Shown one piece after another: positions 1 to 8,716 of a stretch of DNA of 47,532 nucleotides. Source of the DNA: Planctomycetota bacterium (GTDB lineage: Bacteria; Planctomycetota; GCA-002687715; DRQF01); NCBI GenBank assembly GCA_036479435.1, contig JAZGFI010000224.1:1-47532 (forward strand), given 5' to 3'. Numbering within the stretch: the first letter of the stretch is position 1; each line of letters opens with the position of its first letter. Both the position numbers and the translations under genes were made by a program. The notes beneath the pieces were generated by a model. That model saw only the letters and a program-made list of their open reading frames with translations, did not search any database and was not told the origin of the DNA.

Positions 1-139
1 TCTAGATCAAAGTGGATGCGAATTTGCTTTTTGTCTACGACGAAACAAAAGTCGTTGAAAACGGCCTCGAAATGAGGGTTACGGGAGGTTCGCCTCAGTC
101 ACTTTTTCTCGATGCGGAATCGCTGGCCAAAGCGGTCCT

Positions 140-682
140 TCATCCACGCACGAAGATCCAGTGCATCCACGCCGCCCAAGCCGTGCCGTTGCCGAATACG
201 AGCACACGATGGAGCCCAGCCTCATACGGCCTGCAGCTACGGCGATGAAATACAAATTCGCCGTAGCAGATCATCACGGTCGTAAAGAGCACCGCACCCA
301 GGATGGGAATTAGGAGCCATTCCGGCCGAGCCACGCCACTGGCTGCCATCATCAACAAAAACAAGGGTGCACCACCAAGCCCCAGCGCGATCAGCTCCCC
401 TTGCCTTTCGCGCTTGCCAACGATGCGACGTCCCGTGACGTGATAATGCCAATCGAGAAACCCGCAAACCGTTGCCGCGATTCCACACGCTCCGATCAGC
501 CACAACTGCCAGGGGATCGTGGATGCGTTTGAAAGATCGGGAAACCCAGTTCGCCCCGAAACGATCATAAGACCGAGGACAAATCCTGCCCCCGGAAGCG
601 CGAGCGAACCGAGGCCGATGATCGTATCGCGAAGGGGGATGTATAAGGTGGTTCGAGAGACCGCATCAAGAGCAACGGACAT
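140..682 (-). CDS. Hypothetical integral membrane protein with His/Glu motifs
   Basis: 180 aa with about 5 hydrophobic segments. Motifs DWHYH, EFVFHRR and YEAGLH. GGAGG RBS just upstream of the ATG. Confidence 0.7.
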   Translation of the reverse strand: MSVALDAVSRTTLYIPLRDTIIGLGSLALPGAGFVLGLMIVSGRTGFPDLSNASTIPWQLWLIGACGIAATVCGFLDWHYHVTGRRIVGKRERQGELIALGLGGAPLFLLMMAASGVARPEWLLIPILGAVLFTTVMICYGEFVFHRRSCRPYEAGLHRVLVFGNGTAWAAWMHWIFVRG

Positions 683-816
683 GGCGACTCCTCCGAAGAC
701 ACGTACTTTGTGCTGCGCACGATACTTTGCATTGAAAAGTTACGCAAACAGATTCTTCGAATTCCATTCCACGCGACCGGCAAAGGCTCAGCCCGATCCG
801 TCCGCAATCCAGGCTG

Positions 817-1041
817 GCCGGACTGAGCCTTCAGATCATCCAAGCCCAGGGCGGATCGCGGGGCTGTCCTCCCTCCGCGAAACACTGGTCATCCAAACAT
901 GCTGTATGGATGACCACAATGACCCGCCTTACGCCTCGTCAAATTGAAGTCTTGGCCTTCATCCGACGCTTTATCGCCGAGAGAGGGTTTGCGCCCACGC
1001 TGGCGGAAATTGCCGCGGGGTTGGGGTTTCGCTCGGCAAAT
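817..1041 (+). repeat. Direct repeat copy 1 of the lexA operator and first 41 codons (copy 2 at 2332-2555)
   Basis: Manual alignment gives 17 substitutions and 1 indel over ~225 bp (~92% identity). Confidence 0.95.
885..917 (+). promoter_or_regulatory. Putative tandem LexA boxes (copy 1)
   Basis: CTGG-TCATCCAA-ACAT (885-900) and CTGT-ATGGATGA-CCAC (902-917) are degenerate CTG-N10-CAG sites. They form the inverted repeat TGGTCATCCA/TGGATGACCA directly before the ATG. Confidence 0.6.
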
Positions 1042-1131
1042 ACAAATGGGCGGTACCCCATGATTGGCGCTCATGCTTCATCAGACCCTTCGATCCCACT
1101 TGGGCAAAACGCTGGCCAAAGAAATGACTGA
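919..1131 (+). pseudogene. lexA: 3'-truncated lexA fragment (41 homologous codons, then unrelated sequence)
   Basis: MTRLTPRQ...LGFRSAN is identical to the full LexA N-terminus; similarity stops at 1041. Confidence 0.9.
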
Positions 1132-1169
1132 TTCGCTGTCACGCAGCAAAATCGAGACACCGCCGAACG

Positions 1170-2295
1170 ATGTCTAAAAATCTCATTCCAAAACCCGACG
1201 GCTACGACACCGTACTGAATGGCATCACCGTGATGCTCGAGGCCGCCCGTCGCGCAAGCGCGCGCGCTGTCAACTCTGTCATGACCACGACCTACTGGGA
1301 AGTGGGGCGGCGCATCGTTGAATTCGAACAAGGTGGTGAAGACCGGGCTGAATATGGCGAGAACTTAGTTCGCAACCTGGCGAAGGATCTCACTTCACGT
1401 TTCGGAAGAGGTTTTGGCCGTGCCAACCTCTACCAGATGCGAGCTTTCTACAGGACGTGGACCCTAGGAACGCTGAACGACGGGGAAACACGGAAAGTCC
1501 AGACAGCATCTGGATTATCTGGATTGGAAGGAAAATTCCCACTGCCCTGGTCCCATTATGTGACCTTGTTGGGAGTCAAGCACGACGGAGCCCGGGCCTT
1601 TTATGAACGCGAGACGCTCGCTGGCGGCTGGACCATCCGGCAGCTCAAAACGCCAAATAGGGAGCCAGTTCTTCGAGCGTGCCGCTTTGTCCAAAGACAA
1701 AACAAACACACTTAGAAAGGGCGAGAAAGCCAAGCCCAGGGATGCCGTCGCACCCGAAGAGGAGATTAAGGACCCGCTCGTACTCGAGTTCCTCAATCTC
1801 AAGGATGAGTACTCCGAAAGTGATCTCGAGGAGGCCCTGATCCGGCATCTTGAGAGTTTCCTGCTTGAGCTAGGCGGTGATTTCACCTTTGTCGGTCGCC
1901 AAAAGCGACTGCGAATCGACGACACTTGGTTCCGGGTCGATCTTGTGCTCTACCATCGCCGGCTACGATACTTGGTAATCGTGGACCTAAAACTCGAAGA
2001 CTTCTCGCACGCCGATGTCGGACAGATGAATGTCTATCTGAACTACGCACGGCGGCACTGGACACACGACGACGAAAACCCGCCGGTTGGCCTCATTTTG
2101 TGCGCCGCAAAGAAAAAGGAGCTGGCGGAATACGCCCTGCAAGGCATCGAGAATACGATGCTCGCCACTGAATACCGCACGAGACTTCCCGATGCCGGGG
2201 TACTTGAGGAAGAGCTCCGAAAGCGTCGCGAAGAACTCGAGTACCACGGGCTGCCCCCTTTGGCAGCAAAGAGCGAAGGCGGCATTGATGAGTGA
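1170..2295 (+). pseudogene. YhcG/DUF1016 family PD-(D/E)XK nuclease, split by a +1 frameshift (or sequencing error)
   Basis: N-part has YWEVGRRIVE, YGENLV and LPWSHY; C-part has IKDPLVLEFL, RVDLVLYHRRL..VDLK and GQMNVYLNY. Removing one A from AAAA at 1647-1650 restores WTIRQLKRQIGSQFFER. Confidence 0.85.
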
Positions 2296-2331
2296 CCTAT
2301 CTCACAGAGCCCCGGTGGACCAATAAGGATC

Positions 2332-2555
2332 GCCGGACTAAGCCTTCGGATCACCCAAGCCGAGGCTGATCGCGGGGCTGTCCTCCCTCCGCGAAATACT
2401 GGTCATCCGAACATGCTGCATGGATGACCACAATGACCCGTCTCACGCCTCGTCAAATTGAAGTCTTGGCCTTTATCCGGCGCTTTATTGCCGAGAGAGG
2501 CTTTGCGCCCACTCTGGCGGAAATTGCCGCGGGATTGGGGTTTCGCTCGGCTAAT
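2332..2555 (+). repeat. Direct repeat copy 2 (operator and 5' end of the intact lexA)
   Basis: Matches 817-1041. Confidence 0.95.
2399..2431 (+). promoter_or_regulatory. Putative tandem LexA boxes upstream of the intact lexA
   Basis: CTGG-TCATCCGA-ACAT and CTGC-ATGGATGA-CCAC, ending 1 nt before ATG 2433. Confidence 0.6.
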
Positions 2556-3125
2556 GCCTCGGCTCAGCACGTTCGTTTGCTGGTGAAGAAAGGGGCGCTG
2601 GCGGTCGATCCGGGGGTGGCGCGGAGCCTGCGGGTTTTGGAGGCGAAGGACGATTTTGGCGACGGCGCCAGCAACTCGAGTGCAAACTCGAATGCCAATT
2701 CGAGTGCTAATTCGGATGAGGAACGCGGGCTACCTTTGATTGGTGAAGTCGCGGCGGGCCAGCCGATCCTGGCTCAAGAGCAGATCGAAGGGCGCGTTGA
2801 TGTGCCCGGAAAACTGTTTCAACCGGGAGCCAACTACCTGCTGCGGGTGCGCGGCGACTCCATGATCGACGCCGGATTGCTGCCGGGAGATCTGGTGGCC
2901 GTACACCGGCAAAGCGAGGCCCGAGACGGACAGATGGTCGTGGTGCGGCTGGCGGATGAAGTCACGGTCAAGTATTGGAAAACACCTGACAATATAGTTC
3001 GACTGGTGCCGGCCAACGCGAATTACGAACCCATCGAAGTCGACCCTCGGCGTGAGTCGGTCGAGATTGAAGGTTTAGTGGTCGGTGTGTTACGGCTTGG
3101 CTCCAAAGGGATTTCACGAACATGA
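2433..3125 (+). CDS. lexA: SOS transcriptional repressor LexA
   Basis: wHTH LTPRQ...PTLAEIA..LGFRS.N, cleavage site VAAG, catalytic Ser (GDSM) and Lys (VTVK). Start placed at 2433 by alignment with the E. coli LexA N-terminus; the ATG at 2424 lies inside the operator. Confidence 0.96.
   Translation: MTRLTPRQIEVLAFIRRFIAERGFAPTLAEIAAGLGFRSANASAQHVRLLVKKGALAVDPGVARSLRVLEAKDDFGDGASNSSANSNANSSANSDEERGLPLIGEVAAGQPILAQEQIEGRVDVPGKLFQPGANYLLRVRGDSMIDAGLLPGDLVAVHRQSEARDGQMVVVRLADEVTVKYWKTPDNIVRLVPANANYEPIEVDPRRESVEIEGLVVGVLRLGSKGISRT
2667..2714 (+). repeat. Four imperfect 12-bp in-frame repeats in the LexA linker (ASNS-SANS-NANS-SANS)
   Basis: gccagcaactcg agtgcaaactcg aatgccaattcg agtgctaattcg. 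Confidence 0.8.
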
Positions 3126-3985
3126 CCGGATTTAAGGCCAATGATGAGGCTCCGAAATCACCCGATCGAGATACTGTCATGTGCTTAAGGTCAGCACTCG
3201 CTCGGCGGGCAGGCCCATCCTTGAGCCCGACGGCCTCGCCGGGGCCGCTCGCGTTGCAACACATGACAGAATCAGGATCCGCTGAGAACAATCCGCTCAG
3301 CACTTTGTTCCCCGAGGGCTTTGCGCGCGCTTGTTTGCACGAAGTTTGCCTGAATCGCGGAGGCGATGGAGGGCTCGAAGCTTTGTTGCCGAGCCTTTTG
3401 AGCGCGGTGTCGCCAAGCGGCTCGGCCGCGGCGTCAAGCCCTTCAGATCGATCATCAAGTCGCCGCCCGGGGCTTTGCTTTTGGATTGCCGGATCGAGCC
3501 GCAATCTGCCCTACCCTCCCGCTCTCGCCGACTGGGGTGCTGACCTTTCGCGCTGGGTTTTCCTCAACCCAGCGGACCGAGCGGGGCTTTGGGATGCACT
3601 GGAATTAACCCTCGCCTCCGGCCTCGCCGAGCTCGTGGTGGGAGTTTTGGATGAGGCCCCTCTCAGCGTGTTGCGACGCCTGCAGGTGGCGAGCCGGCGT
3701 GGGGGCGGCGCGGCCCTTTTGATCCGCGGATCTCAACAAGCCGCCGCCGCTTCGGCCGCTCCCCTTCGCCTCAGCCTTCGCGCTGAAGTGGCGCTCTCCC
3801 CCCGCCGGCGGCGCGTCCGCATCGAAGTCTTCAAACGTCCAGGGATGGGTTACTCCCCTCCCCTTAGCTGGGAGTGGGGTTTGGATGCGCTGGATGCACC
3901 TCCGCATGCCCGACTTCGCGATCGATCGTCAACTGCGCGCTCAAGCGGACGCGAACACGACTCGACTCGCGCTTTCGGCGCCTGA
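3122..3985 (+). CDS. imuA: ImuA-like (RecA/SulA-like) mutagenesis accessory protein
   Basis: LHEV, PYPPALADWG, LWDALELTLASG and LRRLQVA..GG motifs. ATGA overlap with lexA; lies before imuB. Start uncertain. Confidence 0.82.
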   Translation: MTGFKANDEAPKSPDRDTVMCLRSALARRAGPSLSPTASPGPLALQHMTESGSAENNPLSTLFPEGFARACLHEVCLNRGGDGGLEALLPSLLSAVSPSGSAAASSPSDRSSSRRPGLCFWIAGSSRNLPYPPALADWGADLSRWVFLNPADRAGLWDALELTLASGLAELVVGVLDEAPLSVLRRLQVASRRGGGAALLIRGSQQAAAASAAPLRLSLRAEVALSPRRRRVRIEVFKRPGMGYSPPLSWEWGLDALDAPPHARLRDRSSTARSSGREHDSTRAFGA

Positions 3986-5405
3986 ACGCGGCCGCGATCT
4001 CATCGTCGCGGCGAGCCCCGCCGCTTGTGCCTGCGGAGTTCGGGCCCGGCAAACGGCGAGTGCTGCCCGTGCGCTCTGCGCGGGGCTTCAGGTCCGCCCC
4101 TACGACGATGAGAATGATTGCAGCGCTTTGGAAGCTCTCGCGGCCCAGTTGATCTGCATCAGCCCGGACCTTGCGCTCGATCCTCGCCTGAGTGGCTCAC
4201 AACGCGGCATCTTTGTGGAGATCAGCCGCACCCAGGATCTTTTTGGCGGCGAACTCGCCACCCTTCAAGGCGCGCACCGCTTGGTCCACAAACTCGGGTA
4301 CCGCGCGGTGGTGGCAGTGAGCCCGGGTTTTGCGAGTTCACGGATTTTGAGCTGGAGCCAAGCCAAACTCCCCCTGCGGATGAAAGAAGGCGAGGCCCGC
4401 AAAGCTTTGGGGCCTTTGCCCTGGGCCGCTTTGGAATTGCCGAGCGCCAAAGCGCGCGACTTGCAGGAACTCGGCGTTCAGACTTTGGCAGACCTATTAG
4501 CCCTGCCCCGCGCCGGACTCGCCGCACGCTTCGGCGACGAGGTCGCCAAAGCCTGCGACCAGGCCTTGGGAGAAGGCGGCGGCGATGAGCAGCTCCCCCG
4601 CTTCAAAGCGCCGAAGATCTACCGCGAACGTTTGGAATGGTGGCCGCCGCGCGGCGACCTCGGCCCGATTCTCTTTGCGGCCAAACGACTTTTTGATGCC
4701 GCCGAGAACTGGCTCAGCGCCCAGCAAAAAGCCCTGGTGGAGGCACGACTGACCATCGGGCTCAGCGAAAAAGGACAAAAGCTCCCGCTCAGATTACGCC
4801 CCTCCGCTCCCCTTGCCAGCGCTGAAAGCTTGAACCGCTTGCTGCAGTCGCGGCTCGAATCCATCGAGCTGCCCGCCGCAGCCGAAAACGTCGAGTTGTT
4901 GTTCATCGAAACGAGCTCGCTTTGTGCTGAGCAAGGTGAACTGTTTGAAGCGCCTCAGCGCGCTTGGCAGCAAGAGAGCTATCAGCTTTTGGATCGCCTG
5001 CGTGGACGCTTGGGCGAACATCGTGTTTTGCGGGCTGAACTTTTGGCCGAGAGTCGTCCGGAATACGCCTTTGCCTGGCGAGAGTTTGGGGGCGCGGGGC
5101 AGACTTTTGAATCCAAGGTAAAGACCTTAGTCCCCTCGCTACGCCGCCCGCTATTCCTTGAGTCTCCGCCGCGCCCTCTGCAGGTAAGTTGCGATGCTGC
5201 TGGCCGCCCCCAAAGTATCGAGAAAGGACCTCAGCGAGGGCCTCTGCGCTGCGCGAGTGGCCCTGAGCGTATCGAAGGGGGTTGGTGGGAAGGTCGGCCG
5301 GTCCGGCGCCACTACTTTGAGGTGGAGACGAAAAGCGGCGCCCATCTTTGGATTTTTCGCGATCTGTTGAGCGGCGCTTGGTTCCAACACGGGACCTTTG
5401 ACTGA
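3885..5405 (+). CDS. imuB: ImuB, catalytically inactive Y-family polymerase
   Basis: Y-family-like N-terminus, LPRAGLAARFG, clamp-binding-like QGELF, and C-terminal GPERIEGGWW...RRHYF...LWIFRD...WFQHG. Confidence 0.93.
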   Translation: MRWMHLRMPDFAIDRQLRAQADANTTRLALSAPERGRDLIVAASPAACACGVRARQTASAARALCAGLQVRPYDDENDCSALEALAAQLICISPDLALDPRLSGSQRGIFVEISRTQDLFGGELATLQGAHRLVHKLGYRAVVAVSPGFASSRILSWSQAKLPLRMKEGEARKALGPLPWAALELPSAKARDLQELGVQTLADLLALPRAGLAARFGDEVAKACDQALGEGGGDEQLPRFKAPKIYRERLEWWPPRGDLGPILFAAKRLFDAAENWLSAQQKALVEARLTIGLSEKGQKLPLRLRPSAPLASAESLNRLLQSRLESIELPAAAENVELLFIETSSLCAEQGELFEAPQRAWQQESYQLLDRLRGRLGEHRVLRAELLAESRPEYAFAWREFGGAGQTFESKVKTLVPSLRRPLFLESPPRPLQVSCDAAGRPQSIEKGPQRGPLRCASGPERIEGGWWEGRPVRRHYFEVETKSGAHLWIFRDLLSGAWFQHGTFD

Positions 5406-8400
5406 TGCGCGATCCGGTAGATTTCAAAGCTCATCCTCATCCGGCGCAACGCGGGCAAAAAGATGCTGATGCAAGCTTCGAGAACGCGGGGAAGCCGAGG
5501 TTTGACAAGTCGGCACCAAGGGCGGGCCCCGCCTACGCCGAGCTCTACGCTCAGAGCAACTTCAGCTTTTTGCGCGGCGCTTCGCACCCGGACGAACTCG
5601 TCGCGCAGGCCGAAAATCTCGGCTACACCGCCTTAGCCCTTTGCGACGAGCAAACGCTCGCTGGCGTGGTGCGCGCCCACAGTGCGGCCAAAAATATCGC
5701 CTTCCCCTTTATCGTCGGAGCTGAAATCCACCCAATAGGAAGCCCTCGCTTGGTGTTACTCGCTCCGAATCACACCGCCTACACCAAACTCTCTCGCTTA
5801 ATCAGTCTCGGCCGAACGCGGGCGGATAAAGGCAGCGCGAAGATTTTCCGCGACGACCTCGATCGTTTTCGCGAAGGCTTACAAGCCATCTTGGTGCCGC
5901 GCGACCGTGCTTTAAGTCCGCGCACGACAAAAAATGAGGTCGACGCAGAAGCTGAAGCTTTGCGTCCTTTGCTGGAGATCTTCGGCGACCGCTGTCATTT
6001 AGCGGCGACGCTTAGCGAAGGACCCGACGACGAAGCCAAGCTCAAGCGTTTAGCACAGCTCGAAACGACACTGGATTGCCCCTTGGTTGCCGTGGGGGCC
6101 ACCGAGGCGCACAGCCTAAAGCGCCGCTCCTTGCGAGATGTTTTGGTCGCCTTGAATCGCAAAACAAGCATTGCGGCGCTCGCGGGGTCTTTAGCACCCT
6201 TGCGTTACTTGCGAACCCGCGAGCATCTCGGTCGGCTTTACCGCGATCGCCCTCAGCTTCTTCAACGCAGCGTTGACCTGGCGGCTCTGTGTAAGTTCTC
6301 GCTCGACGAACTCCGCTACGTTTATCCCGATGAAGTGGGCGAATACGACCTCGCCACCTTAGTGGCGCAAACCGCCGCGGCGCGCTGGCCCGAAGGCGTA
6401 TCCAAAAAAGTTCAGGGCCTCATCGACTACGAGATGAAGCTCATCGCCGAGATGCGCTACGAAAGCTACTTCCTCACCATCTACGACATCGTGCGCTTTG
6501 CGCGTTCGCGCGGCATCCTTTGCCAAGGGCGCGGGAGTGCCGCGAATTCGGTGGTCTGTTTTTGCCTCGGCATCACCAACGTCAATCCTGAGCAGTTTGA
6601 AATGCTCTTCGAGCGTTTTATCTCCAAAGACCGCAATGAGCCGCCGGACATCGACGTCGATTTTGAACACGAACGCCGCGAGGAAGTCCTCCAGTACGTC
6701 TACGAACGCTATGGCCGCGAGCGCGCCGCCTTGGCCGCCACGGTCATCAGTTATCGCGGGCGCAGCGCCGTAAGAGATGTAGGTAAAGTCATGGGGCTTT
6801 CGCTCGACCAGGTCGAACGCTTGTCCAAAAGCATCTCCGACCGCCACTCCCACGGACGTTTCGAAGATGAGCGCATCCTCGAGGCGGGCTTAGATCCCAA
6901 AGACGAACATTTGCAGCGCATCTTGAAGCTCGTGCGCGAGATCCGCGGCTTCCCCCGCCATCTGTCGCAACACGTCGGCGGCATGGTCATCACCCAGGGG
7001 CGGCTCGATGAGATCGTCCCCATCGAGAACGCGGCGATGGAAAACCGCAGCGTCATCCAGTGGGATAAAGACGATTTGCAGGCTTTGGGGTTGATGAAAG
7101 TCGATTGCTTGGCCCTCGGTATGCTCACCGCCATCCGCAAAGCATTTGCTTTGATCAAAGACTATCGCGGGCGAGATTTAACCCTCGCCACCGTACCTCG
7201 CGAAGTACCCGCGGTTTACGAAATGGCGGGGCGCGCCGACACGATTGGCGTGTTTCAGATCGAAAGCCGCGCACAGATGGCCATGCTTCCGCGCTTTTTA
7301 CCGAAGTGCTTTTACGACCTCGTCATCGAAATCGCGATCGTTCGCCCCGGCCCCATCCAGGGTGGCATGGTGCACCCTTACCTGCGCCGCCGCGCCGGGC
7401 GCGAGAAAGTGGAGTATCCTTCCGAGGCCGTGCGCGGCGTCTTAGGGCGCACCTTGGGAGTTCCGATTTTCCAAGAGCAAGTGATGAAGCTCGCCGTCGT
7501 TGCCGCGGGGTTTTCGCCCGGTGAAGCCGACCAGCTCCGCCGCGCGATGGCCGCTTGGCGCAAGCGCGGCACGATTGGGCACTTTCGGGAACGGCTCCTT
7601 AGGGGCATGGCCGAGCGCGGTTATCGAGAGGATTTTGCGGAGGCTTTATTTCGACAGATCGAAGGCTTCGGCGAGTATGGTTTCCCCGAAAGCCACGCCG
7701 CGAGTTTTGCCCACCTCACCTACGTTTCCCTTTGGCTCAAACGCTTTGAACCCGCGGCTTTCACCTCTGCCTTGCTGAACAGTTTGCCGATGGGTTTTTA
7801 CGGTCCCTCTCAACTCATTGGCGATGCGCGCCGGCACGGGGTCGATGTCCGTGCGGTCGACGTGATGAAAAGCGGATGGGATTGTCATTTAGAGATTGAT
7901 GAGAACGACGATGCCGAAGCCGATGACGATGGCAAAACAATAGATCGCAAGGCGCTCTCTCCCTCGTCCGAGAGCCCAAGCCTTTTGCCTTCGCGCTACG
8001 GATACGGCGGCCCCGCCTTGCGCCTCGGCCTGCGCACCTTGCGCGGCTTTGCCAAAAAGCGCGCCCAAACTTTGATCCGCGCTCGCAAAGAACAGCCCTT
8101 CCGTTTTGTTGAAGACTGCGTGCAGCGCTCGGGGCTCAACCGCCGCGAGGCCGCCCTTTTGGCCTCCGCCGGAGCCTTCGATGCGCTGAGTCAGCATCGC
8201 CGCGAAGCCTACTGGCAAGCGGGTTCCCCCCGCGTCACGGCTCCACTTTTTGATGCCGAGGCCCTTCGCGAACCCGCCCCCAACCTGGCCGAACCCAGCC
8301 TCCGCGAACAGGTTTTTGCTGACTACCGCAGCTTGGGCTACTCCTTGACCAGCCATCCGGTGGCTTTGGTCCGCAAAGAACTCGACCGCCGGCGCATCCT

Positions 8401-8716
8401 CGGCTTCAAAGCTTTAAGCGCTGTCGATTCGGGTCAGCCGGTGGCGGTAGCCGGTCTTTGCATTTGCCGCCAAAAGCCTGCCACGGCCTCTGGCATCATG
8501 TTCGTGACTCTAGAAGACGAGGACGGAGCCATCAATGTCATCGTTCGAGTAAAGGTCCAAGAGCGGTTTCGCAAAGCTTTGTTGGGAGCGACTTTCATGA
8601 TGGCGAAAGGGGTCTTGGAGCGAGCAGACGGGGTCACGCACCTGATGGCGGGCTATCTTGAGAACATGGATTTTCTGCTCACTAGGCTCGACATCCCTTC
8701 CCGTGATTTCCACTGA
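5405..8716 (+). CDS. dnaE2: Error-prone DNA polymerase DnaE2 (ImuC)
   Basis: SNFSFLRGASHP, GRGSAANS, PPDIDVDFEH, YGFPESHAASFA and C-terminal SRDFH. TGATG coupling to imuB. Confidence 0.97.
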   Translation: MRDPVDFKAHPHPAQRGQKDADASFENAGKPRFDKSAPRAGPAYAELYAQSNFSFLRGASHPDELVAQAENLGYTALALCDEQTLAGVVRAHSAAKNIAFPFIVGAEIHPIGSPRLVLLAPNHTAYTKLSRLISLGRTRADKGSAKIFRDDLDRFREGLQAILVPRDRALSPRTTKNEVDAEAEALRPLLEIFGDRCHLAATLSEGPDDEAKLKRLAQLETTLDCPLVAVGATEAHSLKRRSLRDVLVALNRKTSIAALAGSLAPLRYLRTREHLGRLYRDRPQLLQRSVDLAALCKFSLDELRYVYPDEVGEYDLATLVAQTAAARWPEGVSKKVQGLIDYEMKLIAEMRYESYFLTIYDIVRFARSRGILCQGRGSAANSVVCFCLGITNVNPEQFEMLFERFISKDRNEPPDIDVDFEHERREEVLQYVYERYGRERAALAATVISYRGRSAVRDVGKVMGLSLDQVERLSKSISDRHSHGRFEDERILEAGLDPKDEHLQRILKLVREIRGFPRHLSQHVGGMVITQGRLDEIVPIENAAMENRSVIQWDKDDLQALGLMKVDCLALGMLTAIRKAFALIKDYRGRDLTLATVPREVPAVYEMAGRADTIGVFQIESRAQMAMLPRFLPKCFYDLVIEIAIVRPGPIQGGMVHPYLRRRAGREKVEYPSEAVRGVLGRTLGVPIFQEQVMKLAVVAAGFSPGEADQLRRAMAAWRKRGTIGHFRERLLRGMAERGYREDFAEALFRQIEGFGEYGFPESHAASFAHLTYVSLWLKRFEPAAFTSALLNSLPMGFYGPSQLIGDARRHGVDVRAVDVMKSGWDCHLEIDENDDAEADDDGKTIDRKALSPSSESPSLLPSRYGYGGPALRLGLRTLRGFAKKRAQTLIRARKEQPFRFVEDCVQRSGLNRREAALLASAGAFDALSQHRREAYWQAGSPRVTAPLFDAEALREPAPNLAEPSLREQVFADYRSLGYSLTSHPVALVRKELDRRRILGFKALSAVDSGQPVAVAGLCICRQKPATASGIMFVTLEDEDGAINVIVRVKVQERFRKALLGATFMMAKGVLERADGVTHLMAGYLENMDFLLTRLDIPSRDFH

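Follow-up and report, generated by a model that had tools for sequence, protein, structure and literature searches.

Insertion with long target duplication was reportedly first described by Nobusato et al. in 2000. According to the sections of the survey by Furuta, Abe and Kobayashi (2010, PMC2853133) drawn on here, the repeats that flank such insertions measure 24-423 bp, often lie across the start or stop site of a gene and are found mostly in naturally competent species. The screen in that survey required cargo with both restriction and modification genes, and its quoted sections also report lone nuclease or methylase genes, e.g. mcrA. In a C. jejuni case described there, one copy of the repeat equals the empty site (208/208) and the other one matches it at 195/208 (PMC2853133). 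A related footprint was obtained by E. coli conjugation, where 56/60 recombinants had partial lacZ duplications, 109-950 bp long in the 14 that were sequenced. In the parts of that work cited here (Amarir-Bouhram et al. 2011, PMC3240628), the duplications are attributed to a single crossover of a trimmed and recircularised donor molecule, a route given as ten times commoner than homology-facilitated illegitimate recombination. The latter process, as outlined in the cited parts of PMC3240628 and PMC5361080, combines one homologous anchor with one illegitimate junction and involves no integrase. A further layout is left by integrase-driven islands such as the dusA island, which, in the section of PMC8409611 used here, supplies a new promoter together with an N-terminal part of 61% identity over 35 residues.

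Here we analysed the window, a stretch of 47,532 nt from a Planctomycetota bacterium (assembly GCA_036479435.1, contig JAZGFI010000224.1), in which a cargo is flanked on both sides by the start of lexA, the gene of the SOS repressor. The lexA locus has the footprint of an insertion with long target duplication, a known type of gene gain. As in the described cases, the insert is short (1284 bp, i.e. <20 kb), the repeat is unique and of sufficient length (231 bp, i.e. >30 bp), no integrase or transposase is present, the repeat spans the translation start, the target gene is intact and the cargo is of nuclease type. Unlike the restriction-modification pairs of Furuta, the cargo is a lone and broken YhcG, and the target, the SOS repressor with its operator, differs from those in the portions of PMC2853133 compared here. 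No report of lexA as an insertion target was found in a literature search, most subscription papers and supplements being outside its scope. The locus also resembles the E. coli conjugation route, as far as described in the parts cited, by a partial gene duplication around foreign DNA, by the lack of integrase and by a repeat length of 231 bp that falls within 109-950 bp; that system is, however, a laboratory one in which donor and recipient carry the same lacZ and a marker is selected for, whereas the donor allele in the window would be about 9% diverged. Homology-facilitated illegitimate recombination, in the sections cited above, usually removes an amount of resident DNA similar to that inserted, whereas a resident stretch was duplicated instead in the window. 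Finally, the order of an orphan 5' end, a cargo, then a working promoter with N-terminus recalls the dusA islands and SXT at prfC, but these islands, in the quoted part of PMC8409611, encode an integrase and an excision factor and provide the host gene with a new promoter and an N-terminus of divergent sequence; none of these features is seen at the lexA of the window.

Results

Anatomy of the repeat

The initial annotation, made from the sequence alone, had noticed two direct repeats of about 225 bp flanking a DUF1016 gene. The repeats are real and slightly longer: local alignment of the two copies (Table 1) gave 231 columns with 91.3% identity and one gap (E 5e-88), corresponding to ~107 nt upstream of the ATG at 919 or 2433 plus 41 codons, or 44 codons when counted from the ATG at 910 or 2424. 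When the whole genome was searched for further lexA 5' fragments, the repeat proved to be unique, with two copies and no third. Copy 1 is joined to the cargo inside the conserved GFRSxN stretch of LexA and its reading frame stays open past the repeat to a stop codon at 1129-1131; the exact 70-aa peptide that this frame encodes is absent from the protein collection.

Table 1. Features of the lexA locus and of the other gene-end duplications of the genome.
Feature	Location	Strand	Remarks
Window	start of contig C224		5.47-Mb, 299-contig genome
Copy 1 (orphan): lexA upstream region, operator and first 41 codons	811..1041	+	local alignment
Two tandem SOS-box-like sites, copy 1	885..917 (885-900, 902-917)	+	score 22.4, predicted
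Truncated lexA frame	919..1131	+	41 LexA residues + 29 unrelated residues = 70 aa
Copy 1/cargo junction	1037-1041
Cargo between copies	1042..2325		1284 bp; 55.3% G+C vs 58.1% for the genome
YhcG/DUF1016 N-terminal piece	1170..1715	+	DUF1016_N; PADLOC PDC-S02
YhcG C-terminal PD-(D/E)XK nuclease piece	1603..2295	+	YhcG_C; other frame
Copy 2: upstream region, operator and first 41 codons of intact lexA	2326..2555	+	local alignment
Two tandem SOS-box-like sites, copy 2	2399..2431 (2399-2414, 2416-2431)	+	score 15.6, predicted
Intact lexA	2433..3125	+	230 aa from ATG 2433; 233 aa from ATG 2424
imuA-like, imuB-like, dnaE2	3122..8716	+	downstream of lexA; below cut-off, weak IMS match and above cut-off, respectively
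parE/gyrB-like gene	C2		3' orphan; silent:replacement 6:1 (one silent change is a stop-codon swap)
Uracil-DNA glycosylase gene	C117		3' orphan; silent:replacement 6:0 in last block; later deletion in orphan
Lipoprotein-like gene	C154		silent:replacement 6:5
DUF218 gene	C206		silent:replacement 3:9
Unannotated gene	C217		silent:replacement 8:12
Unannotated gene	C199		silent:replacement 16:16
DJ-1 gene	C261		silent:replacement 2:3, with stop; cargo is another YhcG

Integrity of the assembly

A chimera of two strains joined around the repeat had been named at the outset as one of the cases that would speak against the reading of the locus. The 299-contig assembly, the position of the repeat near a contig start and the presence in the bin of at least one foreign-looking contig (C101) are compatible with such an artefact, which nevertheless appears extremely unlikely. 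The stretch 98-4200 is crossed by single contigs from run X2 (19,181 nt, depth 65), which is the possible source of the assembly, and from run X5 (4,218 nt, depth 6.8), which belongs to another study, with 0 other letters and 0 gaps; the depth is flat across the repeat region and no joint is listed in 4/4 runs examined, out of ten runs listed. X2 and X5, whose contigs have lengths and loose ends in common, probably stem from one strain and do not represent independent biology, and contigs of this kind drop rare variants. The two copies share at most 29 nt of uninterrupted identity, less than the 31-letter words of the run contigs, and should therefore not be merged there. Furthermore, LexA is found on 3 contigs and so is the frameshifted 181-aa YhcG piece, the longest contig measuring 633,746 nt. 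Runs X4 and X8 were left out of the evidence: X4 contributes a small share, the pieces of which match copy 2 exactly, and X8 gave short pieces, with two of the breaks at GATC, and was read as a ligation-type library.

Positions 1-127 of the window are the end of a repeat common to at least 13 other contigs, mostly at contig ends and with 90-100% identity, the summed depth of which in run X2 is 2333 vs 65. This segment looks like an insertion-sequence end, which explains the contig break at the start of the window. It is followed on the minus strand by a 180-aa membrane-protein-like gene (140-682) without a match in Pfam; it shares 73-74% identity with genes of two relatives, in which it lies away from lexA, so that synteny does not mark the native side of the locus. 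The C101 contig consists over its whole length (1-6551) of one frame of 1785 aa, in which domains of an aspartic protease, a reverse transcriptase, Pao peptidase A17 and DUF5641 were matched, flanked by 197-nt direct repeats of 95% identity; it is an LTR retrotransposon and probably represents host DNA binned into the genome.

The cargo

The cargo holds one gene, YhcG/DUF1016 of the PD-(D/E)XK nuclease family, which is listed by PADLOC as candidate defence system PDC-S02; no methylase gene is found in the cargo and YhcG stands alone. The DUF1016 gene reported initially is present but it is not intact: the DUF1016_N and YhcG_C domains are both there, yet they are split over two frames instead of forming one open frame. 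Relative to the paralogue on contig C52, the frameshift consists of one extra base near 1647-1650, and it is present in both run contigs spanning the site. The cargo gene is a broken one for a candidate anti-phage nuclease. The genome has five YhcG loci, on C52, C217, C161, C261 and in the window; next to the frameshifted window copy, the C52 copy has an early stop.

lexA, its cassette and its predicted operators

The product of the intact lexA is a full-length match to TIGR00498 (200 bits, cut-off 110.95) with the PF01726 (DNA-binding) and PF00717 (S24 peptidase) domains. The gene heads a mutasome cassette (imuA-like, imuB-like, dnaE2) with the same gene order as in relatives. The linker between the two LexA domains contains a low-complexity Asn/Ser/Ala insertion of ~25 residues (2640-2720). 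A second and distant lexA, 34% identical, is found at C90:19363-19947, and two LexA matches are also present in all 8 other genomes of the family.

Upstream of the start codon, both copies show a pair of CTG-N10-CA boxes with a spacing of 17 nt, an arrangement also seen in 7/13 lexA upstream regions of relatives; these boxes resemble the E. coli SOS box. A perfect CTG-N10-CAG is found within 90 nt upstream of lexA in 8/13 relatives and in 1.5% of random windows. With a scoring matrix built from the boxes of relatives' lexA upstream regions, the window copies rank first (22.4) and second (15.6) among 46 tandem candidates genome-wide, the third scoring 8.5; the second box is weak in copy 2 (0.4) vs 6.8 in copy 1. 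By this comparison with relatives, the lexA operator initially proposed in both copies holds as a predicted element. A sigma-70 promoter scan of 600-3200 returned 0 sites. As judged by these scores, the stronger operator is predicted to stand now in front of yhcG and the weaker one in front of lexA-imuABC.

Divergence between the two copies

The count of silent differences on which the initial annotation relied was repeated: the coding part of the repeat shows 9 differences in 41 codons, all at third positions and all synonymous. The ninth (position 1038) comes only 3 nt before the match ends and possibly lies beyond the junction, leaving 8 that are safely internal. In the non-coding part, 10/107 columns differ, plus one gap. 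In the null model, a local duplication leaves copy 2 under constraint while copy 1 evolves neutrally, at kappa 1-4. Under it, the probability of seeing only synonymous changes is 0.0009-0.0023 with 8 differences (0.0004-0.0011 with 9), and a neutrally decaying local duplicate was rejected (P about 0.001-0.002 for 8 silent differences). These values suggest that both copies were selected as LexA while diverging, or that the orphan peptide is still under selection. Since the neutral local duplicate is rejected, two once-functional alleles are the likely reading, in agreement with the functional alleles initially proposed. Codon preference sums of +0.96, +1.11 and -1.09 at three loci did not distinguish donor from host copy.

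The same footprint at other genes of the genome

The genome was compared with itself and searched at the protein level with the ends of 4327 ORFs. The repeat census comprised 82 pairs, 29 of them two-copy, from which tandem paralogues, 127-nt contig-end overlaps, IS-like ends, the C101 LTRs and pairs without a gene end were dropped. Seven further gene-end duplications were retained (Table 1), and all eight cargos measure 1.1-5.8 kb. The resident gene stays whole at each site; the seven others all lie at 3' ends with the orphan downstream, and at lexA the 5' orphan is upstream. A clean silent bias was observed only at lexA, the parE-like gene and the glycosylase; four others are decayed and the DJ-1 gene gives 2:3. 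The eight sites form an age series. No YhcG is present in 6/8 cargos, and the annotated non-YhcG cargos encode surface proteins, enzymes or toxin-antitoxin pairs.

The genome has 13 tyrosine-recombinase, 3 resolvase and 1 serine-recombinase matches, all of them on contigs other than these eight, which confirms for the window the lack of integrase reported initially, no recombinase match of any kind being found in it. With 14 recombinases as queries, no recombinase remnant was detected in the eight cargos, including that of lexA (best E 0.048), and no common motif was seen by eye at the 7 junctions inspected. As a background for the repeat detector, 133 kb of relatives' loci gave 0 pairs and 1.45 Mb of other loci gave 8 unclassified pairs, this sample being small and biased.

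Two other arrangements were observed in the genome. On C117 (L141:1394-1776 and 4876-5258), the first 116 codons of a 381-aa HTH-type gene are repeated upstream around a 915-aa gene; the repeat (383 nt, 78%, silent:replacement 45:28) makes this locus a possible second 5' case. On C121 (L048:2129-4512), an AbiEi/AbiEii toxin-antitoxin pair lies between 123-nt direct repeats of 96% identity that have >2 copies in the genome.

lexA loci of other genomes

A lexA 5' duplicate was found in 0 of 22 other genomes of the order (the class-level search covers the same 23 genomes), in 0 of 14 fetched relatives' loci, two of which have little upstream DNA, in none of the 150 listed of 377 matches from 401 genomes of the phylum, and in 0/88 further loci, mostly of Pseudomonas and 83 of them with >3 kb upstream, the window serving as positive control; samples of this kind would miss a rare element. 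In the same 14 loci, with the same restriction for two of them, yhcG was never near lexA. The relatives have a single lexA start, but they belong to other genera and give no DNA match to the lexA upstream region of the window. No empty site was found among the relatives' loci or in 4 runs of contigs, the genome set containing no other member of the genus. A metagenome scan with whole LexA yielded 3 loci, all distant, and a viral contig scan yielded 8 loci, none with a lexA 5' duplicate. The phage search with LexA residues 1-56 returned 111 records, all <60% identical; the 40 of 111 listed cover 95-100% of the query and look like whole LexA-type DNA-binding domains rather than attP fragments. 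In two genomes of one genus, a tandem duplication of 1.4-2.1 kb lies directly upstream of lexA (L022:875-4452, 72%; L026:810-5299, 89%).

The initial annotation had viewed lexA as a dedicated island site comparable to a tRNA gene. This view is not supported: the same footprint is found at seven unrelated genes with no recombinase nearby, and no 5' duplicate was seen at any other lexA locus examined (0/14 relatives, 0/88 further). Given these two observations, lexA is probably not a special landing site.

Discussion

We consider it probable that the yhcG piece was added beside lexA by the homologous recombination of the host, from a close relative in which yhcG lies just upstream of lexA. The most likely origin of the lexA locus would be one crossover with a donor fragment that had recircularised. 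In the proposed sequence of events, a donor fragment made of yhcG, the lexA promoter and lexA codons 1-41 would enter the cell and its two ends would be joined illegitimately, creating a single new junction at 1037-1041. A RecA-dependent single crossover within the ~230-bp shared stretch would then duplicate this stretch around the cargo and leave lexA-imuABC whole, with its promoter; yhcG would have been frameshifted later. The outer edge of the repeat would mark where the donor and recipient neighbourhoods diverge, and the inner edge the new junction. Alternatively, a linear donor with one homologous and one illegitimate end would give the same product, but this route usually deletes resident DNA. 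Both routes yield the observed structure, and the circle with a single crossover is favoured as about twice as likely. The cargo is predicted to be able to loop out again through the repeats.

The presence of recA, comEC and dprA in the genome is in favour of a recombination origin, though comEC (10/14 control genomes) and dprA (11/14) are too widespread to show competence. Against it, MutS is present, the longest identical run is 29 nt and a crossover at 91% identity is expected to be rare. A Ku gene was not found in the genome, which is 92% complete, and neither the donor nor an empty site was found among the 14 relatives' loci and a genome set with no other member of the genus. As to the two routes initially suggested, homology-assisted recombination fits best, and an element restoring the disrupted 5' end lacks any recombinase or remnant.

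The orphan 5' end, the cargo and the restored 5' end are nonetheless the layout that integrase-driven islands leave, as described in the cited part of PMC8409611. The locus might be the remnant of such an island with its attachment site at lexA codon 40-41, which would have supplied a new promoter and 5' end and whose integrase would have been lost or would act in trans. The junction within the conserved GFRSxN stretch, a cargo that is a candidate defence gene and the 13 tyrosine-recombinase matches of the genome, which could act in trans, are compatible with this proposal. We regard it as unlikely, because no recombinase or remnant is found on the contig or in the cargo, the eight target genes would each require their own lost integrase, and the identical peptide and the promoter region, about 90% alike, are unlike the dusA island; a lexA 5' duplicate is likewise absent from 22 genomes of the order, from the 150 of 377 phylum matches listed and from 88 further loci. 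Its stronger form, in which lexA is a true attachment site, is more doubtful still: an element recombining at codon 40-41 would swap the operator allele, put a nuclease under SOS control and retune lexA-imuA-imuB-dnaE2 (15.6 vs 22.4), and the locus would be a minimal remnant that loops out on RecA induction.

That copy 1 keeps an open frame, a better-scoring operator and 41 codons with no replacement change could also reflect a local duplication of the lexA start, a separate yhcG insertion and a 70-aa peptide kept by selection, for instance as a LexA modulator. We hold this for very unlikely. The product has no dimerisation domain and is absent from the protein collection, no relative has it, and its 41-codon LexA part presumably stops at the start of the recognition helix. 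Selection on the peptide is further weakened as an explanation because the 3' orphans, which have no start codon, show the same silent bias without such selection. A last proposal is that the YhcG nuclease itself triggered the event by cutting DNA, as the group of Kobayashi proposed for restriction genes; 2/5 YhcG loci of the genome (lexA and DJ-1 on C261) lie inside such repeats, and flanking repeats are enriched at restriction-modification genes in the sections of Furuta et al. (2010, PMC2853133) used here. With 6/8 cargos carrying no YhcG, a broken gene and a nuclease activity that is only predicted, a triggering role of YhcG seems highly improbable.

Capture of an allele is the reading that is supported, whereas lexA as a dedicated island site is not. 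If lexA were such a site, the switch that controls mutagenesis would itself harbour a mobile element, which the evidence makes unlikely. The lexA locus is a clean case of integrase-free gene gain, a process that is described yet still poorly explained, and its silent-only divergence points to the capture of a relative's allele and not to a copying of the target. Eight such sites, differing in age, are found in this one genome, lexA being the clearest at a 5' end. Such events can move an operator: here SOS control is predicted to extend to the cargo, and the cassette with the error-prone polymerase would stand behind a different allele of the operator.
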